Assembly (NCBI GenBank): GCA_035308905.1
Contig: DATGFS010000048.1
Span: 121,422 to 185,421, forward strand
DNA from: a bacterium
GTDB lineage: Bacteria; Sysuimicrobiota; Sysuimicrobiia; Sysuimicrobiales; Segetimicrobiaceae
Length of the DNA: 64,000 nt
Direction: 5' to 3'
The notes under the pieces are model-generated. The model saw only the letters and a program-made list of their open reading frames with translations, ran no database searches and was not told where the DNA came from. Shown here one piece after another: positions 31,277-55,712 of this stretch. The translations under genes and the position numbers were made by a program. Each line of letters opens with the position of its first letter. The stretch's first letter is position 1.

Positions 31277-31831
31277 TCACTGTTTCAAGTAACGAAGCGC
31301 AACGCATCCTGACTTAAATGTCTCGGACTCAACAAGTTTTAGTTGTAATCTTTCTTGTAGGCTGCTACCGTCCAACAACCGTCTCCCCTCTCCTACAATT
31401 ATCGGCTGAACGACAAAATGATATTCATCAACCAGACCGAGCTCTATCAGTTGTGAAGGAATACTTACACCACCGGTCAAAATATTTTTGCCTTGTTCTT
31501 TTTTCAATTTGAGTATTTCGTCTTGAAGCTCCGTACGAACAATTCTCGTATTGTTTCCTTCGGCGCTGTCCAATGAGCGGGAAAAAACAATTTTGTTGAT
31601 GGAGTCAAATGTGTCGGCAAATTCGTTCGTTGCTTTTGTCATAGAGTGGGTCTTTGCGACATCAGGCCAAAACGGAACCATCAATTGATACGTCTTACGC
31701 CCAAAGACGAGTAGGTCAACATCTCGCATGAGGTGCGTAAAATATTCATGTATTTCTTCATTACCAATTGTTTTGGTGTGGTCGCAGCAGCCATCTAACG
31801 TAATGTTGATTGCGAAGATTACATTTCTCAT
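31277..31831 (-). CDS. Dihydrofolate-reductase-family protein (RibD C-terminal domain / YwjB-like reductase), atypically low GC
   Basis: MRNVIFAINITLDGCCDH...LLVFGRKTY...ILTGGVSI...GLVDEYHFVVQPIIVGEGRRLL matches PF01872 DHFR-like reductases. The gene is about 40-45% GC (42% by hand count on 31301-31360) against a ~70% background. Confidence 0.7.
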   Translation of the reverse strand: MRNVIFAINITLDGCCDHTKTIGNEEIHEYFTHLMRDVDLLVFGRKTYQLMVPFWPDVAKTHSMTKATNEFADTFDSINKIVFSRSLDSAEGNNTRIVRTELQDEILKLKKEQGKNILTGGVSIPSQLIELGLVDEYHFVVQPIIVGEGRRLLDGSSLQERLQLKLVESETFKSGCVALRYLKQ

Positions 31832-31863
31832 TTTCGCCTCGGATTGAGCAGCATTGGGAGCGA

Positions 31864-32931
31864 TCAATCCATGACTACGCGGTTACCGCCGGCACGCTTC
31901 GCTTGGTACATCGCGCGATCGGCCGCCTCCAACAGGGCATCGGCCAGAGCGTCGGCGGCGACTCCGCTGTTGGAACACGTGGCGACGCCGAAACTCGCCG
32001 TGACGCGCGTCAGCTGATTCTCGATATCGGTCATGGCTTGCCGTACCCGCTCCGCGACCAGCGCCGCGTTCCGCTTTCCGGCTTCTGGAAGCAAGAGCAC
32101 AAACTCGTCTCCGCCGAAGCGGGCAGCCAGGTCCATCTCCCGACATGAGCCCCGCAAGACCGCAGCGACCGCCCGCAGCACCTCATCGCCGTGAAGATGG
32201 CCGAACTGGTCGTTGATTTTCTTGAACGCGTCGATTTCCACAAACACGACCGACACCGGGTGTCCCGACCGGCGAGACCGTGCGAGTTCCCGCTCCAGCG
32301 CCCGGCGTAGCGTCCTGCGGTTCGCGAGTCCCGTTAGGCCGTCGGTGGCCGCCTGTTCCCGAAGCTGTTCGTGGAGCCGGGCCGCTTCCAGGGCCGCCGC
32401 CACATAGCCCGCCACGGCGACGAGCACGTCCAGGTCCGCCTCATCGAATGCCGCCGTTTGGCGGCGCACGGCGCTTAGGATGCCCGTCACGCGGCCGCGG
32501 GTCACGAGGGGTGCATAGATGGCGGAACGGGCCCCCGTGTCCCGCCAGCACACCCGTCGATCGGCGGCCAGGTCAGACACGAGCAGGGGTTGGCGGGCGC
32601 CGGCCACCGAGCCGTGGACGCCCTTTCCCCGAGGAATCGCGCGCCCCCGGCTACGTGCGCACAGCCCCGAGGCGGCCCTAATGACGAACGCATTCGGATC
32701 GTTCTCGTCCACGAGGGCAACGGAGCACGCATCAAACCCGACGTCGTCGCGCAGCGCTCGGAGCGCGTACTGGAGCAGGGCCTGGAGGCCGAGGATCGCG
32801 GTGGACTTGCTGGCAAAAGCAGCCAGGAAGGCGACCCTTTTGTCCAGGCCGCCAGAGGCCGATGCGCCGGGCAGCCCGCTGCGCCTGTGCGTGCCGTGCT
32901 TCGTGCGGCGGAGAATGGCGTGGGGCATCAC
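31864..32931 (-). CDS. GAF-domain diguanylate cyclase (GGDEF)
   Basis: N-terminal GAF-like domain, then GGDEF with an intact RFGGDEF site and a putative I-site RxxD. The stop overlaps the downstream low-GC gene's ORF (ATGA at 31864-31867). Confidence 0.8.
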   Translation of the reverse strand: MMPHAILRRTKHGTHRRSGLPGASASGGLDKRVAFLAAFASKSTAILGLQALLQYALRALRDDVGFDACSVALVDENDPNAFVIRAASGLCARSRGRAIPRGKGVHGSVAGARQPLLVSDLAADRRVCWRDTGARSAIYAPLVTRGRVTGILSAVRRQTAAFDEADLDVLVAVAGYVAAALEAARLHEQLREQAATDGLTGLANRRTLRRALERELARSRRSGHPVSVVFVEIDAFKKINDQFGHLHGDEVLRAVAAVLRGSCREMDLAARFGGDEFVLLLPEAGKRNAALVAERVRQAMTDIENQLTRVTASFGVATCSNSGVAADALADALLEAADRAMYQAKRAGGNRVVMD

Positions 32932-33521
32932 AACGCAGGTCCTGCCTGACCATCTGAGCAGTGCGATGAAGCCATGCCGCCCCCTTTGGTGCGGATCGCC
33001 GGTCCTGCGTGTCCTGTACCTTCGCAGGTCCTCGCATCTTCAGACCGCAAATAACAAAGCCGAACGACGTGAACGTTCGGCTTCGGCAACCCGGCTGACC
33101 CGGCAAAACAGTCCCGGTACTACCGGCTTTGGCAGCCCGGCTGATTGCACGGCGGCCCCGTGGCTTTGCGCCCCCGCGTTACCGCGAGTTTGCCTTTATC
33201 CACCGCAGCCTCTCAGCGGTGTCTATCCGCTGTCTCTTTTACAACTCTGGCACAGTGCTCGCGCGCGCTTGCTGCTGCTGTATCTTTGCCACATCGAAGC
33301 AAAATCTTAACTTCATTCTAACTTCATCGACGGTTTACTTGTAGATTCGGAGTAAAGTGGGGAGCGGAAAGGAGGTTGCGCAAAAAAAACCATTCGGGGC
33401 TCCGCCGGCCGCACGGTGAGGAGAGCGCCGCCCGCTTCGCCCCGCCCTCCGCGTCCCCGCGAAACGCCTTATGATCCTTTCGCTATGATGATCGTACCTT
33501 CACTCTTCGAGGGTACTTCAT

Positions 33522-39551: not shown

Positions 39552-41126
39552 GTGGCTGAGACGATCCCAGGACATCCGGCGGCCGGCGAACCCCATCTAC
39601 GCCGGGACATCAGCGTCTGGGGCTCGTTCATGTGGGGCTACGCCGACGTCGGGGCCGATATCTACGCGGCCCTCGGCATCGTCGTCGCCGCGTCGATGGG
39701 GCTCGCGCCCCTTGCCTTCGCAGTCGCCGGAACCGTGTACGTCCTCATCGGGCTCGCGTATACCGAACTCGCCAGCGCGTACCCCGTCGCCGGAGGCGGT
39801 CAGTACTACACCGCGCGCGGCCTCGGCGATTTGTGGGGGTTTATCGCCGGGTCGGCGCTGCTCCTGGATTACACGATCGACATCGCGCTCTTCGCCGCGG
39901 CGTCGGCGGGGTATGTGAATTTCTTCATTCCGGCGATTCGTGACTTCTCCGTAGCGCTCGGGCCGTTCCGGCGCATCAACCCGCTCTGGGCCGGCGAGAC
40001 CGTCGTCCTGATTCTGTTCCTCGTGTGGCTCAATATCCGCGGGATCCGGGAATCGTCGCTGTTCAATGAAATCATCGGCGCGGTCGACATGGTGACCGAG
40101 TCCCTCGTCATCATGCTCGGGTTTCTGTTCGCCTGGAAGCCGGAACTGCTGGTCCACCAATTCGTGACGCAGCAGCCGACGTTCGGGCAGTTCATGTACG
40201 GATCGTCGCTGGCCATTATCTCCTACGTCGGCCTCGAATCGATCTCGCAGGCGGCCCAAGAGACGCGGCGGCCCGCGACGATCATCCCCCGCACGTCGTT
40301 GGGGCTCATCTTCAGCGTCCTGTTGTTCGCGATGGCATTTTCCACATTGGGGATCGGCATGCTGCCCTGGCAGGAGATCGCCGCGCATCAGGGCGACCCG
40401 GTGGCGCTGCTTGCCCACAACATCCCGTTCATCGGGGCCGTCGCCGGTCCGTTTGCCGCGATGCTCGGCGGCACCATTCTCCTGATCTCCGCCAACACGG
40501 GCGTGATGGGGAGCTCCCGGCTGACGTTTTCCATGAGCGGCCTCGGGCTGGCCAGCAGTTGGATGAACGCCGTGCACCCCCGGTACCGCACGCCTTACCG
40601 GACGATCATCCTCTTTTCGGCGATGGCCGTCGTCGAGGCGCTGCTGGCATTCCTGACCCCGCAGGCGCTGGACACGCTGGGCAACATGTACGCGTTCGGC
40701 GCAACCCTCGCGTACCTGCTGGTCTTCGTGTCGCTCGTGCGGCTGCGCTTCGTGGACCCGGTTACGCCGCGGCCGTATCGCGTGCCGTTGAACTTGCGAT
40801 GGCGGCGCCGGGGCGGGGAGGATGTGCACATTCCGGTGCTCGGGTTTTTCGGCATCGTCGGCGTCGGGCTGATTCTCTTCGAGGTGATCCTGACCCATCA
40901 GATCGGACGAATCGCCGGCCCGGGATGGGTGCTGCTGTGCCTCGCCTACTACGTCTGGTACCGGCGGCGGCAGGGGCTGCCGGTGGCGCGCAGCGTGCCG
41001 CGCCACTGGGAGGAGCAGCAGCGCCGGATCTTGCGGGACGCCGAGGAGTTCGATCTGCTCGAGCAGTACGAGATGGCGCTGGCGCAGCGCGACCGGGACT
41101 TTGCCAGGAGGCGGTATCATGCGTGA
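39552..41126 (+). CDS. APC-family amino-acid/polyamine permease
   Basis: 12 TM helices; APC-type N-terminus and overall layout; hydrophilic C-terminal tail. Confidence 0.8.
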   Translation: MAETIPGHPAAGEPHLRRDISVWGSFMWGYADVGADIYAALGIVVAASMGLAPLAFAVAGTVYVLIGLAYTELASAYPVAGGGQYYTARGLGDLWGFIAGSALLLDYTIDIALFAAASAGYVNFFIPAIRDFSVALGPFRRINPLWAGETVVLILFLVWLNIRGIRESSLFNEIIGAVDMVTESLVIMLGFLFAWKPELLVHQFVTQQPTFGQFMYGSSLAIISYVGLESISQAAQETRRPATIIPRTSLGLIFSVLLFAMAFSTLGIGMLPWQEIAAHQGDPVALLAHNIPFIGAVAGPFAAMLGGTILLISANTGVMGSSRLTFSMSGLGLASSWMNAVHPRYRTPYRTIILFSAMAVVEALLAFLTPQALDTLGNMYAFGATLAYLLVFVSLVRLRFVDPVTPRPYRVPLNLRWRRRGGEDVHIPVLGFFGIVGVGLILFEVILTHQIGRIAGPGWVLLCLAYYVWYRRRQGLPVARSVPRHWEEQQRRILRDAEEFDLLEQYEMALAQRDRDFARRRYHA

Positions 41127-41342
41127 CGCGGACGCCGCGGCCGGCCGTCGCGGAGTCAGCGCCGTGGACGCGTACCGGACGGTGACGAGCGTCCTGACGA
41201 TCGTCCTCGGCATCGTCATCCTGGCGCGCACCCTGCCGCTCGGCGTGCACGTGCAGGCGCTGCTGGTGGGTCTCGGTTTCGTGGGCCTCGGCGCGTACCG
41301 CCTGTCGTTTGTGATCGCGTACCTGCGGCGGCGGACGGCGCG

Positions 41343-41933
41343 ATGACCGGCGGTGTGCCGATCAGCCCGCTCGGCGCCGTGCTGGCGGCGACGTTTGCGA
41401 CCAGCATGACCGTGCTGCTCGCCTGGATGCTGCGCGTGCCCCGGCCCGTATCGGCCGAGATTGCGCGGGCGGTGCGGTCTGTCGGCGCCGTGAGAACGAT
41501 CTTCGTGCCGATTTTGGAAGCGTACTATTCGGAGCGGGCGGTCGAACTCGCGAGCCGGCTCGGCGAGGGCCAGAAGGCCACGATCCTCCTGGGGTTCGTC
41601 GTCGAGGTGCCCCGCACGCTGAGCCTGGGCGTCGCGCTGCCCAAAGTTGAGGAGCGGGGACGTCGCGCGCTCGAGCAGGCCAGCCAGATCGTCGCGAACC
41701 ATCACCTGCAGTCGACGACGGAGATGATCCGCGCCCGGGAGGCGGGGGAGGGCATCACGCGAACGGCGCGGGATCATGACGTCGACCTCATCGTGCTCGG
41801 CATCTCGCCGGAGATCGGGTTCGTCGAAGGGTCGACGGAGCGCGTTGCGGAAGCGCTGTTTCGGCACGCACCCTGCGAGGTCATTATCGACCGGCTTGCC
41901 GAGACCAGCATCGGAGCCGCGCCGAGGTCATAG
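41343..41933 (+). CDS. Universal stress protein (UspA domain) with N-terminal membrane helix
   Basis: UspA-like segments (ATILLGFVVEV...DHDVDLIVLG...APCEVII). Confidence 0.6.
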   Translation: MTGGVPISPLGAVLAATFATSMTVLLAWMLRVPRPVSAEIARAVRSVGAVRTIFVPILEAYYSERAVELASRLGEGQKATILLGFVVEVPRTLSLGVALPKVEERGRRALEQASQIVANHHLQSTTEMIRAREAGEGITRTARDHDVDLIVLGISPEIGFVEGSTERVAEALFRHAPCEVIIDRLAETSIGAAPRS

Positions 41934-41974
41934 ACCGGTTTTCCCGCCGGACGCAGAGAGGGGAGTCAGAGGCG

Positions 41975-42451
41975 ATGCACGTGGTGATCCTGGGGTGTGG
42001 ACGGGTGGGTGCGATGCTCGCCTCGTTGCTGGAGCTCGAGGGACATACGGTGGGCATCATCGACCGCGATCCGGAGTCGTTTCGCCGGCTCAGCGAGGGG
42101 TTCGGGGGCAAGACGATCCTCGGCGTCGGGATCGATGAGGATATCCTTCGCAAGGCCGGCATCGAGCGGGCGGGGGGATTCGCGGCCACGACCAACGGGG
42201 ACAACACGAACATCATGTCGGCGCAGATCGCGAAGATGAAGTTCAAGGTCCCGCGCGTCATCGCCCGGATCTACGATCCGCTGCGCGCGGAGGCGTACCG
42301 CGAACTGGGCATCGACACGATCTCACCCACACTGTTGGGCGCGGGACTCTGCATGGACTTCCTGGCCGCGCGGCCCTGGCGCAGCATCGAAGAGTACCAC
42401 GCCGTGCGCGAAACGCGCCTGCTTTCTGCGGAACCTGAAGGGAGCGGGTAA
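41975..42451 (+). CDS. TrkA-N (RCK N-terminal, NAD-binding) domain protein
   Basis: VVILGCGRVG Rossmann motif. Confidence 0.7.
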   Translation: MHVVILGCGRVGAMLASLLELEGHTVGIIDRDPESFRRLSEGFGGKTILGVGIDEDILRKAGIERAGGFAATTNGDNTNIMSAQIAKMKFKVPRVIARIYDPLRAEAYRELGIDTISPTLLGAGLCMDFLAARPWRSIEEYHAVRETRLLSAEPEGSG

Positions 42452-42453
42452 CC

Positions 42454-43128
42454 ATGTACGTGATCGTGGCGGGGGGCGGGAAGGTCGGCTACTATCTCAC
42501 GAAGGCGCTGCGCGACATCGGACAGGAAGTGACCGTCATCGAGAAGCTGCGCCGGCGCTTCGTCATTCTCAAGGAGGAGTTCGGCGACGGCGCGCTGATC
42601 GGGGATGCCTGCGAGGTCCGTACACTGGATCAGGCGGGCGCGGTGCGCGCGGACCTCGTCGCGGCCGTGACCGGCGATGACGAGGACAACCTGGTCATCT
42701 GCCAGATGGCCAAGCGCAAGTTCAACGTCAAGCGCGTAATCGCGAGGATCAACAATCCGAAGAACGAGGTGACGTTCCGGCTCCTCGGGATCGACGAAAC
42801 GGTGAGTTCGACCAAACTGATCTACAGTCTCATCGAGCAAGAGGTCGAAGTCGGCGACGTCATCCCGCTGACGGCGCTGCGGCGGGGGAACTTGGAGCTG
42901 GTCGAAGTGGCGGTTCCGCAGAACTCACCCGCCGCCAACAGGAAAGTTCGGGACCTCCCCCTTCCCCGTGGATGCACCCTCGGGATTCTTGTGAGAGGCG
43001 AGACGGCCGAGGTGATCAATCCGGACACGCTCCTGCGCCCGGGAGACGATCTGGTGGCGATTATCCCGTCGGCCGGGGTTCAGGCGTTCCGCCAGGCGCT
43101 GCTGGGACGAGGTGTGCCCGCGACCTAA
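42454..43128 (+). CDS. TrkA/KtrA-like K+ transport regulatory protein (RCK_N + RCK_C)
   Basis: IVAGGGKVG Rossmann motif plus a C-terminal TrkA-C domain. Confidence 0.75.
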   Translation: MYVIVAGGGKVGYYLTKALRDIGQEVTVIEKLRRRFVILKEEFGDGALIGDACEVRTLDQAGAVRADLVAAVTGDDEDNLVICQMAKRKFNVKRVIARINNPKNEVTFRLLGIDETVSSTKLIYSLIEQEVEVGDVIPLTALRRGNLELVEVAVPQNSPAANRKVRDLPLPRGCTLGILVRGETAEVINPDTLLRPGDDLVAIIPSAGVQAFRQALLGRGVPAT

Positions 43129-43293
43129 GCACAGCCGGCGCCGCGCGGTCGGTCCGGCGCCGAGGCTCCGCAACGCTGTATTCGCTCGGCCGCGCAAATT
43201 TACGATTTCTTAACCTGTTAGGGTGGCTTCATGACCCCGCCGTAACGCGGTTCGTGGTACGGTGCCCCCTATGAGCGGTACGGGAGGTCGTGT

Positions 43294-43386
43294 ATGACGG
43301 ATGTCTTGATGATTGGCCTGATGGTTGTCCTGCTGCTTTCGACTCTCGTCTGGGTCCCGGGATTGACGCGGCTCATAGGACGGTGA
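43294..43386 (+). CDS. Small hydrophobic peptide (30 aa) upstream of kdpF
   Basis: MTDVLMIGLMVVLLLSTLVWVPGLTRLIGR; strong RBS GGGAGG 6 nt upstream. Not in the ORF track because it is under 60 aa. Function unknown. Confidence 0.3.
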   Translation: MTDVLMIGLMVVLLLSTLVWVPGLTRLIGR

Positions 43387-43390
43387 GGGC

Positions 43391-43474
43391 ATGGTCGTGC
43401 TCGCCGGCATCTTGTCGGCAGGACTTTTCATCTATCTCGTCTGTGCGCTCCTGAAGCCGGAGTGGTTCGTATGA
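43391..43474 (+). CDS. kdpF: K+-transporting ATPase small subunit KdpF
   Basis: [27 protein letters not shown] carries the KdpF C-terminal YLxxALLxPExF signature. Its stop overlaps the kdpA ATG (ATGA). Confidence 0.55.
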   Translation: MVVLAGILSAGLFIYLVCALLKPEWFV

Positions 43475-45288
43475 CGGCGATGGGGGTGCTGCGCATTCTC
43501 CTCGCGCTCGCGGTGGTTTTCGCGCTGGTCCGGCCGCTGGGTCTCTACATGGCCCGCGTCTATATGGGCGAGCGCACGCTGTTGGACCGCGTGCTGCGGC
43601 CGCTGGAACGGCTCTTCTACCGGTGGTCGCGCGTGGACCCGGACGAGGACATGTCGTGGCAGACGTATTCGATCGCGATCCTTCTCTTCACGTTCGCCGG
43701 CATGCTGCTGTTGTACGCGCTCCAGCGGACGCAGGCCGTCCTCCCGTTCAACCCGCAGAAGCTGCCGGCCGTTTCTCCGGATCTTTCGCTCAACACCGCG
43801 GTCTCGTTCGCGACCAACACCAACTGGCAGAACTACAGCGGCGAGACGACGCTGAGCTACTTCGTCCAGATGGCGGGGCTCACGGTCAAGAACTTCGTCT
43901 CCGCCGCGGCCGGGCTTGCGGTGATGGTCGCGCTCTTCCGCGGGCTCACGCGGCGGTCGGCGAAGGCGATCGGCAACTTCTGGGTCGACCTCGTGCGGAG
44001 CAGCCTGTACATCCTGCTCCCGATGTCGGTCGTGCTGGCGCTGCTGCTGGCGTCCCAGGGCGTCGTCGCGACCCTGTCGCCGTACCGGACCGCGGCGCTC
44101 CTTCAGCCGGTGACATACGAGGAGCCGGTCACAGACGCGAACGGGAAACCGGTGCTCGACGCGCAAGGTCACCAGAAGACCAAGCCGGTGACGGTCACCG
44201 ATCAGGTGATCGCGGTGGGGCCCGCCGCGTCTCAGATCGCGATCAAGCAGCTCGGCACGAACGGCGGCGGCTTCTTCAACGTCAACTCGGCGCATCCGTT
44301 CGAGAACCCGACCCCGTTTTCGAACTTCCTGGAGCTGATCGCGATCCTCGTGCTGCCGGCCGCGGTCTGTTACACGTTCGGCAAGATGGTCGGCGACACG
44401 CGGCAGGGGTGGGCGATTCTCGCCGCGATGACGCTGATGTTCCTGCCGCTGCTCGCGATGACCGAGGGGTTCGAACAGGCCGGCAATCCGCTGATCGCCC
44501 ATTTCGGCGTCGATCAGCGGGCGGGTCCCGCGCAGTCCGGCGGCAACATGGAAGGGAAGGAGACGCGGTTCGGCGTCCCCGATTCCGCGCTGTGGGCGAC
44601 GGCGACCACCGCCACGTCAAACGGCTCGGTCAACTCGATGCACGACTCGTACACGCCGCTCGGCGGGATGGTGCCCCTGATCGCCATGCATTTGGGCGAG
44701 GTCGTCTACGGCGGCATCGGCGTCGGGCTGTACGACATGCTGATGGTGGTGATCCTCGCCGCGTTCATCGCCGGCCTGATGGTCGGCCGCACGCCGGAAT
44801 ACCTCGGCAAGAAGATCGAGGCCTTCGAGATGAAGATGGCGTCGGTCGTGGTGCTGGTAATGCCGCTGATCGTCCTGATCGGCACGGCGCTCGCGGTCGC
44901 GACCCCGGCCGGCCGCGCCGGCGCCTCCAACCCCGGCCCGCACGGCTACAGCGAAATCCTCTACGCTTTTACCTCGATGGGCAACAACAACGGCAGCGCG
45001 TTCGCCGGCATCAACAGCAACACGCCGTTCTACAACGACGTTGGCGCGGTCGTGCTCTGGCTCGGACGGTTTTGGGAGATCGTGCCGGTTCTGGCGGTGG
45101 CAGGCGCGATGGCGGCCAAGAAGGTCGTGCCGCCCAGCCCCGGCACCCTGCCCACGCACACCGGGCAGTTCGTGCTGTGGCTCGCCGCGGTGACCGTGGT
45201 CATCGGGGCGCTCAGCTTCCTCCCGGCGCTCGCGCTCGGCCCCATCGTCGAGCACTTCCTGCTCTACGCCGGCGCGGTCTTCAAGTGA
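43471..45288 (+). CDS. kdpA: K+-transporting ATPase subunit A
   Basis: KdpA selectivity-filter-like segments ([19 protein letters not shown]). Confidence 0.9.
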
Positions 45289-45298
45289 GGGTACACCA

Positions 45299-47389
<2,091 letters not shown>

Positions 47390-47424
47390 CGGCGTCCTAT
47401 CGTGCTCGCGAAGGAGCGTGACGT

Positions 47425-47997
47425 ATGCGGCGTCAGATCTATCCGTCGATCATGATGACCATCCTCTCGACCGTGTTGTTCGGATTGATCTACCCGCTCG
47501 CGATCACCGGGGTCGCGCAGGTGCTCTTTCCGAAGCAGGCCAACGGCAGCCTCATCGTCGACGGCGGCAGGGTCGCCGGTTCGACCTTGATCGGCCAGCC
47601 GTTTTCCGACCCGAAATACTTCTGGGGACGTCTGTCCGCGACGTCGCCCTTTCCATATAGCGCCGCGGCCTCCAGCGGCTCCAACCTGGGGCCGACGAAC
47701 CAGGCGCTGATCGACGCGGTCAAACAGCGGATCGACGACCTCCGCAAGGCCGACCCGGGCAACGCGGCGCCGATTCCGGTGGACCTTGTAACCGCCTCGG
47801 CGAGCGGATTGGATCCTCACATCAGCCCCGCGGCGGCGCGGTATCAGGCCGCCCGCGTCGCGCGGGTACGCCGGCTTCCGCCGGACACGGTCGACCGTCT
47901 GATCCGGGAGCATACCGAGGGCCGGCAGTTCGCCATCCTCGGTGAGCCGCGCGTGAATGTGCTAGAGTTGAACCGAGCGCTGGATCAAACGAGGTGA
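47425..47997 (+). CDS. kdpC: K+-transporting ATPase subunit C
   Basis: KdpC N-terminal TM helix and conserved SGLDPHISP motif. Confidence 0.85.
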
Positions 47998-48141
47998 CCT
48001 TGTATCGGATACGCCGGCGAGGCGGAACGCCCGCGTCCTGAGGCCTTTCTAAAGGAAGCCGAGACCGAAGAGCGCCGGCACCGCCGAGGCAAGCTCCGGA
48101 TCTTTCTCGGGTACGCCGCCGGCGTCGGCAAGACGTACGCG

Positions 48142-50787
48142 ATGCTGCTTGCGGCCCGCGAGGCGCAGGCCGAGGGGCGGCGCGTCGCGCTCGCCTACGT
48201 GGAAATCCATGGGCGGGCCGAGACCGAGGCGCTCGTCGCCGGCTTCACGGTCATCCCCCGCTGGAAGATCGCCTATCGCGGCGTGACGCTCGAGGAGATG
48301 GACCTCGACACCGTCCTCAGCGAGCATCCCGACCTTGCCGTCGTCGACGAGCTGGCCCACACCAACGCGCCGGGGTGCCGGCACGCCCGGCGGTCCCAGG
48401 ACGTCGACGAGCTCCTCGAAGCCGGGATCGACGTCTACACGACGCTCAACGTCCAGCACATCGAGAGCCTCAACGACGTCGTCGCCCAGATCACCGGCAT
48501 CACCGTCCGCGAAACGGTCCCCGACCAGATCCTCGAGCAGGCGGACGAGGTCGGCCTGGTCGACCTGCCCCCGGACGAGCTGATCCAGCGCCTGCATGAA
48601 GGCAAAGTCTACATCCCCGAGCAGGCGAGCCGGGCGATCGACAAGTTCTTCCGCCCCGGCAACCTGACCGCGCTGCGCGAGATCGCGCTCCGGTATCTCG
48701 CCGGCCAGGTCGATCATCAGATGCGGGCCTACATGGAGAGCCACGCGATCCCGGGCCCGTGGCCGGCCGGGGAGCGGGTGCTGGTCTGCATCGACGCGGA
48801 TCCGCTGGCGGAGCGTCTCGTCCGGACGGGTCGGCGCATGGCCACCGGCCTGGACGCCGAGTGGATCGTGCTCCACGTCGAGACGCCCGAGTACGCCACG
48901 CTGCCCGAGGCGGCGCGCGATCGTATCGCGCGGACGCTGCGTCTCGCGGAGGAGCTCGGAGCCAGGACGGTCAGCCTGCCCGGGACGAAAGCCTCCGAGG
49001 AGATCATCCGGTACGCGCGCGCCCAGAACGTGTCGAAGATTCTGGTCGGGGTGTCGCACCATCCCCGGTGGATCCAGCTGATCCACGGCTCGGTGGTCGA
49101 CCGCATCATGCGGGCGGCCGGCAACATCGACGTGTACGTGATCAGCGCGGCCCGCGAGCGGCAGCGCGCTTCCGAACCCGCCGCTCCGGAATGGCCGGGG
49201 CTCTTCAGCAAACCCTATCTCTACGGCGCGGCGGTCGTCGCCCTGGCCGTCGTCATCGGCGCGCTGGTGCACGGGGTCTGGGCCCAGGCGAACGTGACGA
49301 TGCTCTTTCTGCTTGCGGTCGTCGTGACCGCGCTGCAGTGGGGGCGCGGCCCCGCGACGCTCGCGGCGGGCGTGAGCCTCGCGGCGTTCGCGTTCTTCTT
49401 CGGGCCGCCGTCGTTCACGTATACCATGGCCGACACCCAGTATCTCGTCACCGTGGCGGCGCTGCTCTTCGTCGGTCTCGTGATCGGCACCCTGGCCAGC
49501 CGCACGCGTGAGCAGGCCCAGGCGGCGCGCAGCCGCGAAGCGTACATGGCCGCGCTGCACGCCCTGAGCGGAGAGCTCGCCGCGACCAACGACCTCGACG
49601 CGATTCTCCAGGCGGTGGGCCGCCACATCGCGGCGACGTTCGGACGCAGTGTCGCGATCTTCCTGCCGAAAGGCGAGACGCTCGAGCCCCGGCTCATGAC
49701 GCCCGGGTTCCCGCTGACGGAGAACGAACGGGCGGTTGCCGACTGGGTGTTCCGGCGCGGCCACTCGGCCGGGTACGGCACCGACACGGTGCCGGCGGCC
49801 GCCGCGCGGTACATGCCGCTCAAGACCGCGCAGCGGATCGTCGGCGTGCTCGGCGTGCAGCCGCCGGCGTCGGGCCCGCGGCTCAATCCCGAGCAGCGCC
49901 GGCTCCTCGACGCGTTCGCCAGCCAGGCGGCGCTCGCGATCGAGCGCGTGGAGCTGGCGGAAGAGGCGCGCCGCGGCGACATCGCCCGCGAGACGGAGCG
50001 GTTGCAGACCGCGCTCCTGAACTCGATCTCGCACGATCTCCGCACGCCGCTCGCCTCGATCACCGGGGCGCTGACGACGCTCGGCGATCACCCGCCCGCG
50101 GACGAGGCCGTGCGCCGCGAACTGCTGCAGAACGCGAGGGAGCAGGCCGAACGGCTGAACCACCTCGTCGGGAGCCTGCTCGACATGAACCGGCTCGAGG
50201 CCGGGACGCTGCGGCTCCGCATGGAGCCCGGCGACGTGGAGGACCTGATCGGCGCGGCGATCGCGCAGCTCGGCGACACGGCGCAGCACCGTGACATCCG
50301 GGTCTCGGTCGACCCGAAACTGCCGCTCGTGCCGATGGACTTCGCGCTCATCACCCAGGCGCTCGTCAACGTGCTCGACAACGCGCTGCGCTACTCGCCG
50401 CCGGACGCTCCCATCGAGGCCGGCGCGCGTCTCGTGGGAAACGAGGTGCAGATCCGCGTCGAGGACCGCGGGCCCGGCGTGCCGCCCGGCGACGTCACGC
50501 GCATCTTCGACAAGTTCTACCGCATCCAGCACGACGGCGCGGGGCACGGCGCGGGTCTCGGCCTCGCGATCAGCCACGGCATCATTGACGCGCACGGGGG
50601 CCGGATCTGGGCGGCCAACCGCCCCGACGGCGGCGCCATCGTCGCCTTCGCGCTGCCGGTTCGGCCGCCGGAACCTTCCGGAGGTCTGTCCCCGCAAGCG
50701 GAAGACTCACACTCGCGCGGGCCAAGCGGGCGGACGGCCGGCGGGGATCGCGCGTCGCAATGGGCGACACCGGGCCGCGCGTCCTAG
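48142..50787 (+). CDS. kdpD: Sensor histidine kinase KdpD (5' end anomalous: conserved N-terminus lacks a canonical in-frame start)
   Basis: KdpD N-domain, USP domain, 4 TM helices, GAF and HisKA/HATPase_c are all present. The conserved residues RGKLRIFLGYAAGVGKTY are encoded in-frame upstream of the first ATG (48142), with no ATG/GTG/TTG back to the kdpC stop. A GTG at 47994 overlaps the kdpC stop (GTGA) but is in the +1 frame. Confidence 0.75.
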   Translation: MLLAAREAQAEGRRVALAYVEIHGRAETEALVAGFTVIPRWKIAYRGVTLEEMDLDTVLSEHPDLAVVDELAHTNAPGCRHARRSQDVDELLEAGIDVYTTLNVQHIESLNDVVAQITGITVRETVPDQILEQADEVGLVDLPPDELIQRLHEGKVYIPEQASRAIDKFFRPGNLTALREIALRYLAGQVDHQMRAYMESHAIPGPWPAGERVLVCIDADPLAERLVRTGRRMATGLDAEWIVLHVETPEYATLPEAARDRIARTLRLAEELGARTVSLPGTKASEEIIRYARAQNVSKILVGVSHHPRWIQLIHGSVVDRIMRAAGNIDVYVISAARERQRASEPAAPEWPGLFSKPYLYGAAVVALAVVIGALVHGVWAQANVTMLFLLAVVVTALQWGRGPATLAAGVSLAAFAFFFGPPSFTYTMADTQYLVTVAALLFVGLVIGTLASRTREQAQAARSREAYMAALHALSGELAATNDLDAILQAVGRHIAATFGRSVAIFLPKGETLEPRLMTPGFPLTENERAVADWVFRRGHSAGYGTDTVPAAAARYMPLKTAQRIVGVLGVQPPASGPRLNPEQRRLLDAFASQAALAIERVELAEEARRGDIARETERLQTALLNSISHDLRTPLASITGALTTLGDHPPADEAVRRELLQNAREQAERLNHLVGSLLDMNRLEAGTLRLRMEPGDVEDLIGAAIAQLGDTAQHRDIRVSVDPKLPLVPMDFALITQALVNVLDNALRYSPPDAPIEAGARLVGNEVQIRVEDRGPGVPPGDVTRIFDKFYRIQHDGAGHGAGLGLAISHGIIDAHGGRIWAANRPDGGAIVAFALPVRPPEPSGGLSPQAEDSHSRGPSGRTAGGDRASQWATPGRAS

Positions 50788-51452
50788 TCGTCGACGACGA
50801 GCTCGCGATCCGCCGGTTCCTGCGGGCGTCGCTGTCGGCGCAGGGGTACCAGATGTTCGAGGCCCCGTCCGCGCGCGAGGGGCTGGACGCGGCGGCGACC
50901 GTGCGTCCGGATCTCATCATTCTCGATCTCGGCCTGCCGGATCTCGACGGCGTGGAGGTCACGCGGCGGCTTCGCGAATGGTCGAAGGTGCCGGTGCTGA
51001 TCCTGTCTGTGCGTGGGCGGGACGAAGAGAAGATCGCGGCACTCGACGCCGGCGCGGACGACTACCTGACGAAGCCGTTCAGCATCGGTGAACTGCTGGC
51101 CCGGATGCGCGTCGCCATGCGGCATGTCGCGCAGCCGGCCGACGAGCCGGTCGTGACCGCGGGCGACCTGACGGTCGACGTGGCGCGCCGCCTCGTCACG
51201 GTCGGCGAACGCGAGATCACCCTGACGCCCGTCGAGTACACGCTGCTCAAGACCCTGGCGCTCCACGCGGGACGTGTGATGACCCACGGCCAGCTGCTCC
51301 GCGAGGTGTGGGGGCCGGGCTACAATCAGGGCGGCAACCTGCTCCGCGTCAATATCAGCAAGCTCCGCCACAAGGTCGAACCGGACCCGGCCCGGCCGCA
51401 CTACATCGTGACCGAGCCCGGCGTCGGCTACCGGCTGCGGATGGCGACCTGA
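50760..51452 (+). CDS. kdpE: Response regulator KdpE (OmpR family)
   Basis: Receiver domain (VLVVDDE...D...K) plus a winged-helix OmpR C-terminal domain; overlaps the kdpD end. Confidence 0.85.
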   Translation: MGDTGPRVLVVDDELAIRRFLRASLSAQGYQMFEAPSAREGLDAAATVRPDLIILDLGLPDLDGVEVTRRLREWSKVPVLILSVRGRDEEKIAALDAGADDYLTKPFSIGELLARMRVAMRHVAQPADEPVVTAGDLTVDVARRLVTVGEREITLTPVEYTLLKTLALHAGRVMTHGQLLREVWGPGYNQGGNLLRVNISKLRHKVEPDPARPHYIVTEPGVGYRLRMAT

Positions 51453-51456
51453 TCGT

Positions 51457-51490
51457 CGCCGGCCGACCCATGGCCGGCCGCTTACTTTTT
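51457..51490 (+). terminator. Putative terminator after kdpE
   Basis: GCCGGCC-7 nt loop-GGCCGGC stem, then CCGCTTACTTTTT. The U-tract is displaced by 8 nt. Confidence 0.35.
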
Positions 51491-52021
51491 CGGGTCGAGC
51501 TTCAACGCCGCGGAGTTGATGCAGTAGCGGAGTCCGGTCGGCACCGGGCCATCGTCGAATACATGCCCGAGGTGGGCGTCGCAGCGCGCGCACAACACTT
51601 CGGTCCGGATCATGCCGTGGCTCCGGTCGGTCTCCTCCGCAATCGCGGCGTCCTGGGCCGGACGTGTGAAGCTCGGCCATCCGCATCCCGCGTCGAACTT
51701 GGCGTCCGACTCGAAGAGCTCCGCACCGCAGCACACGCACCGGTAGGTGCCGGGCGTCGTCGTCTTCTCGTACTCGCCGCTGAACGGCCGCTCCGTCGCT
51801 TTGCGCCGCGTGACGGCGTACTGCTCCGGGCTCAGCAGCCGGCGCCATTCCGCGTCGCTCTTTGTCACCCTCTCGGAGGCGGGACCTCCCCTGTCTGACG
51901 CAGGACCTCCGGCCGCGTCTGAGCCTGCGGCGCGGACCAAAGATGCGCCTCCTGCGGGCGCGTCTGAGCCTGCGGCGCGGGCCAAAGATGCGTCTCCTGC
52001 CTTCTCGCCTTGCTGTGCCAT
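51482..52021 (-). CDS. msrB: Peptide-methionine (R)-S-oxide reductase MsrB with a repeat-containing low-complexity N-terminal extension
   Basis: SelR core with 2x CxxC ([10 protein letters not shown]...[12 protein letters not shown]). The ~55-aa Ala/Gly/Ser N-terminal extension is encoded partly by a 2x ~43-bp tandem repeat. The true start may be internal (GTG). Confidence 0.7.
51915..51999. repeat. 2x ~43-bp tandem direct repeat inside the msrB 5' region
   Basis: GCGTCTGAGCCTGCGGCGCGG(A/G)CCAAAGATGCG(C/T)CTCCTGC repeated back-to-back. Confidence 0.6.
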
Positions 52022-52235
52022 CGAGGCTCCCTCACCTATGCTTCAACCGAAGTTTCTGTCGCTTCCACGATATCTCCGCGGCGGATTGTCCGCAAGCCGG
52101 CCGCCGGCCGCGGCGTCCGGTCTTCACAACTTCCCGCTCAAGTTCCCCGGTCTTGGGCATCACAACACACAAGACTCGGGGCACGTTGCGGTAAGGGCGG
52201 CCGACGAAATCCCGAGACACCGGCCGCCTGAGAGG

Positions 52236-54884
52236 ATGTTTCATATCATGCCGCGTCTTGCGGGGCAGGGGGAGCCGCAGCGCGTCGCGGAGACGCAGGA
52301 AATTCACCGGGACGCGAACGTCGAACTGCGCGCGACGCTGATGGCGCGCTTGGTGGCCGTCAGCGAAACCCTGCGCGGAAGTGCGTCGACGGAGGCCGCC
52401 GCCGCGGCGGTCGGACGGGCCCTGCTCATGTTGACCGGTGCGGCGCGCAGCGCCGTCTTTCTCCGCTCGCAGAACGGCATCGTCACGTGTCCCTGGTCGC
52501 ACAACCTGTCGGAAGAATACGTCGCGCGGCTGCGGACGCCGGACGGCGCCAATCCCTGGGCGCATCTCTCCCGCCATCCCGAACTCGCGTGCATGGACCT
52601 GCCGGCGCGCGGCCGCATCAAGGCCGCCGTGCCCGCGATCGTCGAAGACGTTCGAACGCTGCCGGCCGGCAACGAGATCCGCCGCGCCGCGGAGCGCGAG
52701 CGCATCCGCGCGTTCTGCTCGTGGCCGCTCAGCCGCGGCGGGCGCGTGTTCGCAGCGGTCGCGTACTATTTCGAGGCGCCGCACGCGTGCGCGGCCGCCG
52801 AGCGCGAGGTCGTCCTGGCTTTTGCGCTGCAGGCGACCGCGACACTCGAGCAGGCGATCGCCGCGGAGGCGCGCGGGGAGGGGGCCGCGGAAGCCGAGGC
52901 CGCCGGGGCCGAGGCGGAGGCCCGGCTCGAGATCGAGGCGGCTCGACTCGCGGCGCTGCAGCGCGCGCTGGATGCCGAAAGCGCGCGTCTCTCCGCGGAG
53001 CGAACGGAGCTCGCGGTGGAGGACGAGCGGCTCGGCGGCGCGCGGCGTGAGCTCGACGCCGACCGCGAACGGCTGGTCGAGACGCGGCGCGCACTCGAGA
53101 ACGAATCCGAGCGGTTTGCCGCCACGCGCGGCGAGTTGGAGGCGGACCGGAAGCGGCTCTCGGACCTCCGTCGCGAGGCGGAGGCGGAGCAGGCGCGGCT
53201 GGAGGCGTTCCGCCGCGAACTCGACCTGGAGCGGTACCAGATCGACCGGCTCCGCGAGGAGATGGACGGCGCGCGCAAGCTGCTCACGAAGGATCAGGCG
53301 GAGCTCGATGCTGCGCGTGCGGATGTCACCAAGCACCGGACGGAGCTCGAGGCCAAGCGTGCGGCCATCGCCAACGACCGGGCGGATCTCGACGCGGATC
53401 GCGCCGGGGTCGTCAAGGCGCGGGCGGATATCGAGGTCGAGCAGGCGCACGCTGCCGAGGACCGAGTGGATCTCGACGCGCGGCAGGCGGCCGTCGCCAA
53501 AGCCGGGGCCGATCTCGAGGCCGGGCAGGCGGCCGTCACCAAAGCCCGGGCCGAGCTCGAGGTCGAGCAGGCGGCCGTCACCAAAGCCCGAGCCGAGCTC
53601 GAGGCCGGGCAGGCGGCCGTCACCAAAGCCCGAGCCGAGCTCGAGGCCGAGCAGGCGGCCGTCACCAAAGCCCGAGCCGATCTCGAGGTCGAGCGCGCCA
53701 AGCTCACCGAGGCTCGGCGGGCGTTGGAGGCCGAGCGGCTGCGGTCTGCGGAGTCCACAGGGGCCGCGCCCGACAGCGACGCGGCGGAGCGCGCGCGGGC
53801 CGCCGCCGAGCTGGAGCAGGAGAAGAACCGCCTGATCGAGGCGCACGGCGAGCTCACGGCCGCGGAAACCGAGCTGGCCCGGACGAGGGCCGCACTGGAA
53901 GCCGAGACCGCGCGGCTCGCGGAGGCGCGGCGAGAACTCGAAGGGGATCGCGCGCGTCTCACGGAGGTCCAGCGTGTCGTCGAGGAGGATCGGGCACGTC
54001 TCTCGGACGTCCAGCGGGCGCTTGAGACAGACCGCGCGCAGTTGGCGGAGATGCGGGCGGCCTTCGACGCGTCCAGCGCACGGCTCGCCGACGCGCAACG
54101 AGGGTTCGGGGTCGAGCGGGAACGCCTCGCGGACGTCTGCCGCGCGCTCGACGGCGAGAAAGCTGAGCTGAAGGCCGCTCAGGGCGGCCTCACCGCGGAG
54201 TGCGCGCGCCTATCGGCCGCCGTCGCCGCGCTCACCGACCCGGCGCCTGCCTACTCCCCGGCCGTTGCCGGGCCGGCGACCGAGGCCGCGCGGCCTGTCC
54301 GCACCGCCCCGTCCGGCCCGGCGAATGGCAAGCAGGGCCCCACCAAAGACGTCAGAGCGGGGAAGCCTGTCGTGCCGCCGGTTCCGTCCGCGCCTTCGTC
54401 ACAACTCCCGAGCGCTACCGGCGGACCTGCCGCCGGTCCTCAGCCGGGACCGGTCAACTCGGTCATCGGCCGGCAGACGACGCCGGAGAAGTATCGCGAG
54501 CGTCTCGCCGGATGGGCCGAGGTCGCTGCGAAGGCGCTCGGCTGCAAAGAGCCCGAGGTGCTCGACCTGCGCCGGGCCGCGCTGCTTCAGGGGGTCTCCG
54601 CGCCCGCCGGAGGCGCCTTGCCCCGGGGCGTCGCGGTGATCCTCAAGCACCGCGAGGAGCGCTGGGACGGGACGGGGACGCCCGACCATCTGAAAGAGGA
54701 CGCGATCCCGCTCGGCGCGCGGATTCTCGCCGTGGCCACCGCCTACGCGGACATGGTCACCGGCGGGCCCGGCTCCCCGATGCTCTACTACCTGGACGCG
54801 AAAGCGCATCTGCGGCGGAACGCCGGCGCCGCGTTCGATCCAAAGATCGTGGAGGTGTTCTGCCGCGTCGTCGATCGCGGCTGA
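52236..54884 (+). CDS. Large GAF-like / long coiled-coil / degenerate HD-GYP multidomain protein (~880 aa)
   Basis: N-terminal ~200 aa GAF-like region. About 500 aa of heptad-rich coiled coil, including 14-aa tandem repeats (QAAVTKARAELEAE). A Pro-rich linker, then a C-terminal HD-GYP-like segment (HREERWDGTGTPDHLK...IPLGARILAVATAYADM...AGAAFDPKIVEVF) in which HD is replaced by QG and GYP by GTP. Start ATG at 52236 or 52248 (RBS GAGAGG). The track ORF start at 51747 overlaps msrB and is rejected. Confidence 0.6.
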   Translation: MFHIMPRLAGQGEPQRVAETQEIHRDANVELRATLMARLVAVSETLRGSASTEAAAAAVGRALLMLTGAARSAVFLRSQNGIVTCPWSHNLSEEYVARLRTPDGANPWAHLSRHPELACMDLPARGRIKAAVPAIVEDVRTLPAGNEIRRAAERERIRAFCSWPLSRGGRVFAAVAYYFEAPHACAAAEREVVLAFALQATATLEQAIAAEARGEGAAEAEAAGAEAEARLEIEAARLAALQRALDAESARLSAERTELAVEDERLGGARRELDADRERLVETRRALENESERFAATRGELEADRKRLSDLRREAEAEQARLEAFRRELDLERYQIDRLREEMDGARKLLTKDQAELDAARADVTKHRTELEAKRAAIANDRADLDADRAGVVKARADIEVEQAHAAEDRVDLDARQAAVAKAGADLEAGQAAVTKARAELEVEQAAVTKARAELEAGQAAVTKARAELEAEQAAVTKARADLEVERAKLTEARRALEAERLRSAESTGAAPDSDAAERARAAAELEQEKNRLIEAHGELTAAETELARTRAALEAETARLAEARRELEGDRARLTEVQRVVEEDRARLSDVQRALETDRAQLAEMRAAFDASSARLADAQRGFGVERERLADVCRALDGEKAELKAAQGGLTAECARLSAAVAALTDPAPAYSPAVAGPATEAARPVRTAPSGPANGKQGPTKDVRAGKPVVPPVPSAPSSQLPSATGGPAAGPQPGPVNSVIGRQTTPEKYRERLAGWAEVAAKALGCKEPEVLDLRRAALLQGVSAPAGGALPRGVAVILKHREERWDGTGTPDHLKEDAIPLGARILAVATAYADMVTGGPGSPMLYYLDAKAHLRRNAGAAFDPKIVEVFCRVVDRG
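53485..53694. repeat. Five near-perfect 42-bp tandem repeats (plus degenerate flanking copies) within the coiled-coil CDS
   Basis: Unit CAGGCGGCCGTCACCAAAGCCCGAGCCGAGCTCGAGGCCGGG/GAG at 53485, 53527, 53569, 53611 and 53653. Degenerate copies at 53443 and 53695. Confidence 0.8.
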
Positions 54885-54932
54885 CGTTCGAGCAGGCATT
54901 CCCCGATCCTCCATGGAAACCGGCGAGGCATC

Positions 54933-55712
54933 ATGGCGCCGCTCCTCTCCATCGAAGGGGTGACCAAGGAGTTTCTGGTTCGCGGGACGCGGATCGCGGC
55001 GCTCGATGCGATCAGCCTTGCCGTCGATGAGCGCGAGTTCGTCACCGTCATCGGTCCCTCCGGCTGCGGCAAATCCACCCTGCTCAACCTCGTGGTCGGC
55101 CTCGCGGCGCCCACCGCCGGCCGCATTGTCTTTCGCGGCCGCCCGATCGCCGGGATTACGCCGGCGATCGGCTACGTCACCCAGCGCGACAATCTGCTGC
55201 CGTGGCGAACGCTGGTCGGGAACGTCGAGATCGCGCTCGAGATCCGAGGCGTGGCCCGCGGCGAGCGCCGCCGGCGCGCCGCGGGCCTCATCGCCCAGGT
55301 CGGGCTGGCCGGCTTCGAGTCGCACTATCCCCACGAGCTCTCCGGCGGGATGCGCCAGCGCGCCAACATCGTGCGCACGCTGATCTACGAGCCGGACCTG
55401 ATTCTGATGGACGAGCCGTTCGGCCCGCTCGACGCGCAGACCCGGATCGTCCTGCAGGACCAGCTTCTCCGGCTGTGGGCCTCCACCGCCAAGACGATCA
55501 TCTTCATCACGCACGACCTCGTCGAGGCGGTGGCGCTCGCCGACCGCGTCGTCGTCATGAGCTCGCGTCCCGGGCGGATCAAGTGCGTGGCGGACGTGCC
55601 GATTCCGCGGCCGCGGGACCTCTACCGAATTCACGAGCACCCCGGCTTCGCGCCGGTCTACGGCGCGCTGTGGAACGAGCTGCGGCCCGAAGTGACGGTC
55701 GCGCAGGCCTGA
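54933..55712 (+). CDS. ABC transporter ATP-binding protein (nitrate/sulfonate/taurine NitT/TauT type)
   Basis: GPSGCGKST, LSGGMRQR and LLMDEPFGPLD motifs. Confidence 0.8.
   Translation: MAPLLSIEGVTKEFLVRGTRIAALDAISLAVDEREFVTVIGPSGCGKSTLLNLVVGLAAPTAGRIVFRGRPIAGITPAIGYVTQRDNLLPWRTLVGNVEIALEIRGVARGERRRRAAGLIAQVGLAGFESHYPHELSGGMRQRANIVRTLIYEPDLILMDEPFGPLDAQTRIVLQDQLLRLWASTAKTIIFITHDLVEAVALADRVVVMSSRPGRIKCVADVPIPRPRDLYRIHEHPGFAPVYGALWNELRPEVTVAQA

Follow-up and report, generated by a model that had tools for sequence, protein, structure and literature searches.

Inactive GGDEF, EAL and HD-GYP domains recur in cyclic di-GMP (c-di-GMP) signalling, yet their stepwise repurposing is seldom visible. 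Among HD-GYP proteins, PmGH of Persephonella marina (4mcw) is an active GAF-HD-GYP phosphodiesterase with a complete trinuclear metal site and the KPG, GYP and RxxK motifs. DvhD carries a degenerate, metal-free, HD-less HD-GYP domain that binds c-di-GMP (PMC13090378, 2026), and RpfG (X. campestris), HnoD (S. oneidensis), PA2572 ('YN-GYP', P. aeruginosa) and ECA3548 are inactive HD-GYP proteins that act via protein-protein contacts. Here we describe a gene from a 64,000-nucleotide stretch of a Segetimicrobiaceae genome (GCA_035308905.1, contig DATGFS010000048.1, positions 121,422 to 185,421; hereafter the window), whose product joins a GAF domain, a long coiled coil, a disordered linker and an HD-GYP domain shortened by an internal deletion. 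We propose that the protein descended from GAF-containing HD-GYP c-di-GMP phosphodiesterases and may now be a cytoplasmic pseudoenzyme adaptor, a GAF-sensor rod with a tethered, dead HD-GYP interaction module, and we put the probability of this explanation as a whole at roughly 0.5.

The gene and its degenerate HD-GYP domain

The open reading frame (ORF) lies on the + strand and ends at 54884, where a first-pass annotation, made from the letters of the window alone, had placed its end. The ORF list and translation offer two in-frame candidate start ATGs. The one at 52236, which that annotation had taken as the start, directly abuts the Shine-Dalgarno sequence GAGAGGA with no spacer, whereas the one at 52248 lies 9-10 nt 3' of the Shine-Dalgarno sequence and yields MPRLAG, to be compared with the MPRVAG or MPRIAG at the N-terminus of all orthologs. 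Because the ortholog N-termini match and the Shine-Dalgarno spacing is conserved, we consider that the coding sequence probably runs from 52248 to 54884 (+; 878 amino acids, aa, plus stop) and that the ATG at 52236, four codons upstream, is not used; residues are numbered throughout from ATG 52248. Orthologs 47-67% identical to the window protein, in conserved synteny, were present in at least 10 independent assemblies. The four-part anatomy read by the first-pass annotation (GAF, coiled coil, Pro-rich linker and HD-GYP-fold domain) held up to profile, periodicity, composition and AlphaFold2 (AF2) evidence.

The C-terminal part (aa 746-878; 54483-54881, +) is a compact six-helix core with an internal deletion, defined by profile, AF2 and alignments, which we call a pseudo-HD-GYP domain. 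It scored 62.7 bits against Pfam HD_5 (cut-off 27.2), with the match limited to profile positions 97-170 (the C-terminal 74), and a family profile of the domain matched all solved HD-GYP proteins (5z7c, 9rbz/9rc0, 4r8z and 4mcw). The AF2 model of the isolated domain has six helices, with a predicted local distance difference test score (pLDDT) of 89.4 and a predicted template modelling score of 0.85. The HD_5 score, the structure-profile matches and the HD-GYP helical fold together bear out the predicted HD-GYP relationship.

To assign residue roles we followed Galperin and Chou (bioRxiv 10.1101/2021.11.05.467447), using PmGH numbering, and aligned the clade with paralogs that have a full-length domain. 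The position of H189 is Tyr in the window protein; the HD dyad (H221/D222) is QG, and HG, MG, LG, YD, FD or YE across the clade; H250 is deleted; D305 is Thr; and HHE (H276/H277) is HRE, its remaining His being Y, G or N in other clade members or fragments. The GYP Tyr (Y285), which contacts phosphate, is replaced by Thr to give GTP, with T, A, R, G or K in orthologs, and RxY[K/R] is GPGS in the window protein and RPG[SVA] in some orthologs. Alignments against P0007, L008, P0008, P0176 and P0178 place the degenerate HD motif, LLQG (aa 779-782), and the deletion site at 54582-54647 (+); the segment missing relative to full-length HD-GYP domains is GK...KPG...H250, about 30 aa, so that the KPG motif is gone with it. 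The stretch that follows, HREERWDGTGTP (aa 801-812; 54648-54683, +), aligns as the remnant of HHExxDGxGYP, with the second His changed to Arg and the Tyr to Thr. This comparison with homologues holding an intact HD-GYP domain, a check that had been suggested at the outset, agrees with the earlier view that the shortened domain has lost both its HD and its GYP signatures, and extends the loss to the catalytic and substrate motifs generally. On these alignments, the inability of the protein to hydrolyse c-di-GMP is well supported.

The first-pass annotation had expected the degenerate domain to bind c-di-GMP or a partner instead, and the c-di-GMP part of this expectation was not supported. The canonical c-di-GMP site of DvhD is formed by Y523, L577, K582, Y621, M646, R650, Y652 and E668 (PMC13090378). 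When we mapped these contacts onto the window protein through HMMER alignments to 9rbz, one of the eight was kept (the equivalent of M646), the other seven being, in order, T, deleted, deleted, T, G, G and A. P567 and R569 of the DvhD bridging site lie within the segment that is deleted in the window protein. With KPG deleted, RxY[K/R] and the GYP Tyr replaced and the metal ligands all lost or unconserved, c-di-GMP binding at either known site appears unlikely.

To see how selection acts on the gene, we compared it codon by codon with five orthologs. The ratio of nonsynonymous to synonymous substitution rates (dN/dS) was 0.18-0.29 in the GAF domain and 0.28-0.39 in the C-terminal domain; in the coiled coil it was 0.30-0.71 and in the linker 0.35-0.51. 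The C-terminal domain aligned with the orthologs without gaps (132-133 of 133 residues), and 47 of 138 C-terminal positions are invariant within the clade, among them the H-x2-E-x-W-[DN]-G-x-G-x-P loop, IPLGARILAV, AYA-M and PMLYYLDAKA. Purifying selection and these invariant positions together indicate that the dead domain has been kept for a non-catalytic purpose.

The GAF domain, coiled coil and linker

In a Pfam scan of the single protein, GAF_2 (20.4 bits) and GAF (19.6 bits) were both sub-threshold. A profile of 14 family sequences, by contrast with these single-protein scores, matched the GAF structure 3hcy in the PDB at E=2e-12, with weaker matches to 3k2n and 1ykd, and the paralogs P0022, P0024 and P0028 scored 36-39 bits against Pfam GAF (cut-off 22.4). 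The N-terminal region is thus GAF-like, as had been proposed with profile searches as the check, and the domain spans aa ~21-212 (52308-52883, +). The full-length AF2 model gives a pLDDT of 68-87 for aa 21-110 and of less than 50 for aa 118-180; Foldseek with this model returned 3hcy, 3p01 and phytochrome GAFs with probability 0.9-0.99 but marginal E (~0.1-0.4). The residues C81-P82-W83, W159-P160 and H179 are invariant in the clade, as are two cysteines 34 residues apart (C81 and C115). The closest solved GAF, 3hcy, belongs to a Sinorhizobium meliloti sensor histidine kinase and has the YYD.PH motif region in common with the window protein, whereas the C-P-W motif and the coiled-coil fusion are particular to the small clade of the latter. 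The GAF profile found 940 proteins at E<=1e-10; among the best 150 listed, multi-GAF giants are frequent. A GAF domain with two invariant cysteines encoded beside msrB resembles the GAF-fold free-Met-R-sulfoxide reductase (fRMsr); membership of that family was rejected because the family profile had no fRMsr chain among its PDB matches at E<=10.

Across aa 216-662 the Fourier peak of hydrophobic periodicity is at exactly 7.0 residues. Segment 1 of the coiled coil (aa 216-501; 52893-53750, +) is rich in Ala, Glu, Arg and Leu, has a period of 7.00 and a heptad profile with L/V/I at position a (88%), R/Q at e (82%) and E/A/R at g, and is modelled by AF2 as helices at 231-379 and 391-501. Segment 2 (aa 511-662; 53778-54233, +) has L, F or V in 100% at one heptad position and is a single AF2 helix (511-662). 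Between them lies a non-helical break, ESTGAAPDS (aa 502-510; 53751-53777, +), which AF2 models as coil with pLDDT below 50 at 503-511 and which is found at the matching place in most aligned orthologs. R/Q and E/A occupy the flanking heptad positions, as e/g salt bridges would require. Where the coiled coil leaves the GAF domain, its first ~40 residues (RLAxLQRxLxAExARLxAER) are conserved in the window protein, its orthologs and those of the short GAF-coiled-coil paralogs described below that were aligned. The long coiled coil of the first-pass annotation therefore stands, although at ~447 aa rather than 500, as do its 14-residue tandem units, which are near-exact rather than exact.

Six of these 42-bp (14-aa) units, delimited by Tandem Repeats Finder (TRF) and by listing the units, occupy aa 412-495 within segment 1 (53481-53732, +). 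TRF itself reported 53346-53694, with a period of 42 bp and 8.3 copies; the core 42-bp copies are 1-4 nt apart, and the 12-mer QAAVTKARAELE occurs exactly three times. The array is an insertion relative to all orthologs (alignment columns ~455-600) and is thus lineage-specific, being found only in the window. The closest ortholog, L005 (7989-10913; 970 aa; metagenome-assembled genome, MAG, SMAG_U6314), has its own ~130-aa coiled-coil duplication with a second copy of the break region. Since this duplication differs from the 14-aa array of the window, rod length changes independently in each lineage. Full-length members of the clade are 582 to 970 aa long although their end domains do not vary in size, and coiled coil plus linker range from ~240 to 630 aa among orthologs. 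The rod evolves by in-frame tandem duplication, a pattern that fits a spacer whose exact sequence matters little. Assignments of the coiled coil to HmpF, SMC, Rad50 or PspA were dismissed as compositional matches, far under the family cut-offs (HmpF 47 bits against 200, with SMC and others likewise far below).

The linker (aa 663-745; 54234-54482, +) is rich in Pro (22%), Ala (17%) and Gly (12%), has an AF2 pLDDT of ~30 with no secondary structure, and is poorly conserved, at 31-65% identity among orthologs. These ~80 disordered residues stand in place of the stalk helix of DvhD, so that neither the GAF domain nor the coiled coil can be mechanically coupled to the C-terminal domain as modelled.

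Family members and genomic context

Searched at full length against 5.8 billion proteins, the window protein had 9 matches, a figure limited by coiled-coil words saturating the candidate list; domain-wise searches were added, and a GAF-profile scan of 1.84 billion representatives run without the filter found ~17 close relatives. Both counts agree with the earlier judgement that the architecture is unusual, a rarity that is established only for relatives of the window's GAF and C-terminal domains. The family is very small, with ~10 full-length members and some fragments, every one of them recovered from soil metagenomes or MAGs; among GTDB species representatives it occurs in three soil MAGs only, and elsewhere it comes from soil or forest metagenomes. 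Roughly a dozen more C-terminal fragments match HD_5 only, with no Pfam HD match, and those that were aligned show the deletion.

The relatives form a graded series. At one end are GAF-GAF-HD-GYP proteins with canonical HHE, GYP and RPYK motifs and no coiled coil (P0008, P0030, P0033 and P0036), followed by GAF-coiled coil-HD-GYP proteins with HD and GYP intact (P0022 and P0024). Others of the same architecture keep HD, with HH changed to HR, GYP to G[HR]P and RxxK lost (P0007, P0023, P0026 and L008), and the clade with the deletion (the window protein, P0001-P0006, P0029 and L005-L007) stands at the other end. The family thus runs from enzyme to pseudoenzyme, ending in a form from which the lid/KPG segment has been excised and whose remaining domain is under selection. 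There are also short proteins of 200-316 aa made of GAF and coiled coil alone (P0013-P0019 and L009), and a degenerate form can co-occur in one MAG with a fuller or a short paralog. Another relative, the metagenomic protein P0028 (471 aa), has the same GAF domain and a short coiled coil, then a hydrophobic transmembrane segment and a C-terminal SPOR domain (22.6 bits; cut-off 21), which hints that the GAF-coiled-coil module can anchor at septal peptidoglycan.

In related soil bacteria, the short paralog belongs to a conserved operon. In L010/L011 (5176-12890) and L009 (5516-12375), a gene for an MshEN-T2SSE ATPase is followed by the GAF-coiled-coil gene and then by a gene for a MASE1-PAS-GAF x3-HD-GYP protein. 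The short paralog (310 aa) starts 2-3 nt past the ATPase stop, and its HD-GYP partner gene encodes 1318-1356 aa, followed in L010/L011 by a GAF-GGDEF gene. The MshEN domain is a c-di-GMP-binding module. The fuller paralog L008 neighbours genes for a cyclic nucleotide monophosphate-binding transporter, a HAMP-GAF kinase and a REC-guanylate-cyclase protein. Given the short-paralog operon and the context of L008, the GAF-coiled-coil module recurs in cyclic-nucleotide signalling neighbourhoods.

In the window, the gene is flanked on one side by a divergently transcribed msrB (51482-52021, -), identified through SelR Pfam matches at orthologous loci, and on the other by an NMT1-type ATP-binding cassette (ABC) transporter and then a class-III aminotransferase gene. 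The first-pass annotation had named msrB and a tau-like transporter cluster as neighbours, and its statement that msrB carries its own repeat extension proved correct: TRF defined an in-frame 44-aa insertion (51869-52000), rich in Ala, Gly, Ser and Asp, directly after MAQQGEK and made of 45-bp x2.1 and 21-bp x2 tandem repeats. The insertion is absent from the orthologs at L001, L002 and L012, and the MsrB of L005 (204 aa in total, SelR at 88-200) has a longer N-terminal extension still. A divergent msrB was found 204-256 bp upstream of every recovered copy of the degenerate clade (the window, L001-L007, L012, L014 and L015), the intergenic region measuring 226 bp in the window. Beyond msrB the loci differ, several having a kdp/trk cluster there and L012 having VWA or ferritin genes, and the fuller paralogs are not beside msrB. 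MsrB is 84-93% identical among the clade genomes.

The 5' leader of the gene was compared in a 6-locus intergenic alignment with RNAalifold. A hairpin of 8-9 bp, GGCGGCCG-N17-CGGCCGCC (52196-52228, +), lies directly 5' of the Shine-Dalgarno sequence, its stem having one GC-to-AU compensatory change, in L012. The leader (52153-52250, +) contains conserved blocks, and TTGGGCATCACAA could pair with the start-codon AUGCC. An Rfam search of the leader and intergenic region at a permissive E-value gave only a chance miRNA match. Scanning 51400-55100 revealed no sigma-70-like promoter, nor any terminator ahead of the ABC ATPase gene downstream; the sole non-coding terminator-like site in that interval was 51458-51478, between kdpE and the 3' end of msrB.

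The gap to the downstream gene on the same strand is 32-55 bp in the window, L012 and L002 and ~320 bp in L001. Across loci, the class-III aminotransferase lies downstream with or without the NMT1-type ABC transporter inserted, followed by peptidase S58 and a major facilitator superfamily transporter. Upstream, the gene stands at the end of a potassium-homeostasis block (39552-51452, +) of an amino-acid permease-like gene, Usp, two TrkA genes, kdpABC and kdpDE; this order is common to L001-L005, and kdpA-C, Usp and TrkA of the window were assigned by synteny and ORF size. A comparison of KdpB with plasmid sequences gave ~69% identity to Burkholderiales, too little to be diagnostic of taxonomy, and neither rRNA nor marker genes are present in the window.

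Farther off in the window, a c-di-GMP-I riboswitch (33128-33204, -) that scored 59.8 bits (gathering score 35) lies ~200 nt 5' of a same-strand GAF-GGDEF diguanylate cyclase gene (31864-32931, -), which suggests c-di-GMP feedback on its own synthesis. The next gene downstream, which shares 4 nt with the end of the GAF-GGDEF gene, is a RibD_C-family gene (31277-31867, -) in a low-GC patch (42-49% against 65-72% around it), which may have been recently acquired.

Proposed function and comparison with known systems

A scaffold, adaptor or partner-binding role for the protein is plausible by analogy, and because RpfG, HnoD and PA2572 offer precedents for inactive HD-GYP domains, we propose that its C-terminal domain may work by protein interaction; the earlier suggestion of a filament has no specific support. 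The protein would be a parallel dimeric rod-shaped adaptor that, at 0.148 nm per residue, would reach ~65 nm when fully extended. At one end the GAF domain would sense a small ligand or redox state, and at the other the tethered pseudo-HD-GYP domain would bind a protein partner via the conserved remnant of the GYP loop and the helices that follow, with the H-x2-E-x-W-[DN]-G-x-G-x-P loop, IPLGARILAV and PMLYYLDAKA as the proposed interaction surface. Likely partners would be components of the organism's cyclic-nucleotide network, its own paralogs included. Since the linker is flexible, the GAF domain and the C-terminal domain would communicate by proximity, avidity or localisation and not by helix rotation. 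Expression is probably coupled to that of msrB by the shared divergent promoter region.

Several observations weigh against this proposal. Although Leu occupies position a of the heptad, position d is mostly Ala, Glu or Asp, which makes for a weak core, so that a dimeric coiled coil is only inferred. The best structural match of the C-terminal domain by Foldseek is the c-di-GMP-bound receptor DvhD, and a non-canonical nucleotide site in the domain is conceivable. The adjacency of msrB may have been inherited through the relatedness of the genomes, as the high identity of MsrB among them suggests, and so may not be functional.

The structural likeness to DvhD bears directly on the reading preferred by the first-pass annotation, that of a DvhD-like c-di-GMP receptor domain making the protein a c-di-GMP-responsive scaffold. 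DvhD is a precedent for a metal-free, HD-less domain that binds the nucleotide (PMC13090378), the genome uses c-di-GMP, as the riboswitch upstream of the GAF-GGDEF gene in the window indicates, and the paralogs are placed in c-di-GMP operons. We nevertheless regard this reading as unlikely, given that the M646 equivalent is the only contact kept, P567 and R569 fall in the deleted segment, KPG and RxY[K/R], the motifs that define c-di-GMP recognition, are missing, and a disordered linker stands where a stalk helix would pass on the binding signal. A different use of the protein, as a dominant-negative or modulatory partner of its own paralogs, would have it tune the activity or location of a fuller-HD-GYP paralog by heterodimerising through the GAF-proximal coiled coil or through HD-GYP/HD-GYP contacts. 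The co-occurrence of L005 with the fuller-HD-GYP paralog L008 in SMAG_U6314, and of L006 with the short GAF-coiled-coil paralog L009, which has no HD-GYP domain, in SMAG_U8773, would suit such a partnership, as would the ~40 conserved residues at the start of the coiled coil in the window protein and the short paralogs and the dimerisation of the HD-GYP domains of PmGH and DvhD (PMC13090378). It is made doubtful by the paralogs not being genomically adjacent, with none within the 64-kb window, and by the fuller paralog itself being without the second HH histidine, the GYP Tyr and RxxK.

Could the neighbouring msrB be the key to the protein? Conserved Cys or Met residues (candidates being C81 and C115-M116 in the GAF domain and M836, PMLYY and FCRVV in the C-terminal domain) would then be oxidised and repaired by MsrB, gating the adaptor. 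The candidate Cys and Met positions are invariant, msrB is divergent at every recovered context even where the genes beyond it differ, and it is not found beside the fuller paralogs; however, the argument is purely inferential, the genomes are close enough for the synteny to be inherited, and the PDB matches at E<=10 included no GAF-fold free-Met-sulfoxide reductase, and we think this account improbable. A cytoskeletal, filament-forming coiled-coil-rich protein of the crescentin, FilP or Scy type is very unlikely: the long heptad repeat and weak Pfam/NCBIfam coiled-coil matches (HmpF, Rod_CreS, SMC and similar) would be expected of one, but those matches, far under the family cut-offs, reflect composition, globular domains at both ends and a disordered tether are atypical, and the length of the coiled coil is not conserved. 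Finally, the near-identical 42-bp repeats at 53481-53732 could have collapsed or expanded during assembly, and lost catalytic residues are what a decaying pseudogene would show. The frame is nevertheless unbroken across 2.6 kb, the architecture recurs in orthologs from at least 10 independent assemblies, the end domains have dN/dS well under 1 and the C-terminal domain is gap-free against all orthologs. We therefore rejected an assembly artefact or pseudogene, on conservation and dN/dS, as hardly credible; that reading is largely refuted, with uncertainty confined to repeat copy number.

A bolder form of the adaptor proposal, which we advance tentatively and consider rather unlikely, is that the clade constitutes a new class of pseudoenzyme, a phosphodiesterase-derived 'molecular tether' with a GAF sensor on an adjustable ~65-nm rod and a nucleotide-blind HD-GYP remnant on a leash that recruits or sequesters a partner. 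If so, the partner would be a diguanylate cyclase, an active HD-GYP paralog or a T2SSE/MshE-type ATPase, the GAF domain might respond to redox state or Met oxidation and be co-regulated with MsrB, and the repeat-tuned length of the rod would determine how far a spatially organised complex for cyclic-nucleotide signalling can reach. Rapid change in length and construction from repeats fit a coiled coil that serves as a spacer, one whose length may be functionally tuned. Members of the family occur only in uncultured soil bacteria, and current understanding is not overturned by them.

By homology and fold the C-terminal domain is an HD-GYP domain, and by sequence it is neither an active phosphodiesterase nor a DvhD-type receptor. 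Degenerate HD-GYP domains and GAF-HD-GYP fusions were already known, whereas the ~450-aa coiled-coil insertion, the disordered tether and the clean internal deletion were found undescribed; the census of Galperin and Chou (bioRxiv 10.1101/2021.11.05.467447) contains no coiled-coil architectures ('coiled' occurs 0 times), the S-helix only. PmGH, the active GAF-HD-GYP enzyme, has no long coiled coil and no disordered linker, and in the PmGH-type architecture a short helical linker between the two domains permits allosteric control of catalysis; in the window protein, ~447 aa of coiled coil and 83 aa of disordered linker come between GAF and HD-GYP. RpfG, HnoD, PA2572 and ECA3548 share with the window protein their degenerate active-site motifs, and regulate by interaction without hydrolysing c-di-GMP. 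They are, however, REC- or PilZ-linked with a full-length HD-GYP domain, at least PA2572 keeps its GYP motif, and the GAF domain, the ~450-aa coiled coil and the internal deletion are absent from all of them.

Another point of comparison is V-cGAP3 (5z7c), whose N-terminal, non-catalytic HD-GYP-like domain aligns with the C-terminal half of the window domain at E=8.7e-8 for that stretch, and does so with phmmer as well. We take this pseudo-domain of V-cGAP3 to be a regulatory remnant. It is paired with an active HD-GYP domain in one chain, whereas the window protein is without an active domain. DvhD of Desulfovibrio vulgaris (9rbz/9rc0), in turn, is a dCache-PAS membrane receptor with a full-length domain that has the GYP Tyr and the Leu, Lys, Arg, Tyr and Glu contacts, and a dimerising stalk helix directly before that domain moves on ligand binding. 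The window protein is cytoplasmic, has lost seven of the eight contacts and has 83 residues predicted to be disordered (pLDDT ~30) before its domain. In contrast to DvhD, then, it appears to have given up nucleotide binding as well as catalysis, a caution that not every degenerate HD-GYP domain should be annotated as a c-di-GMP effector.

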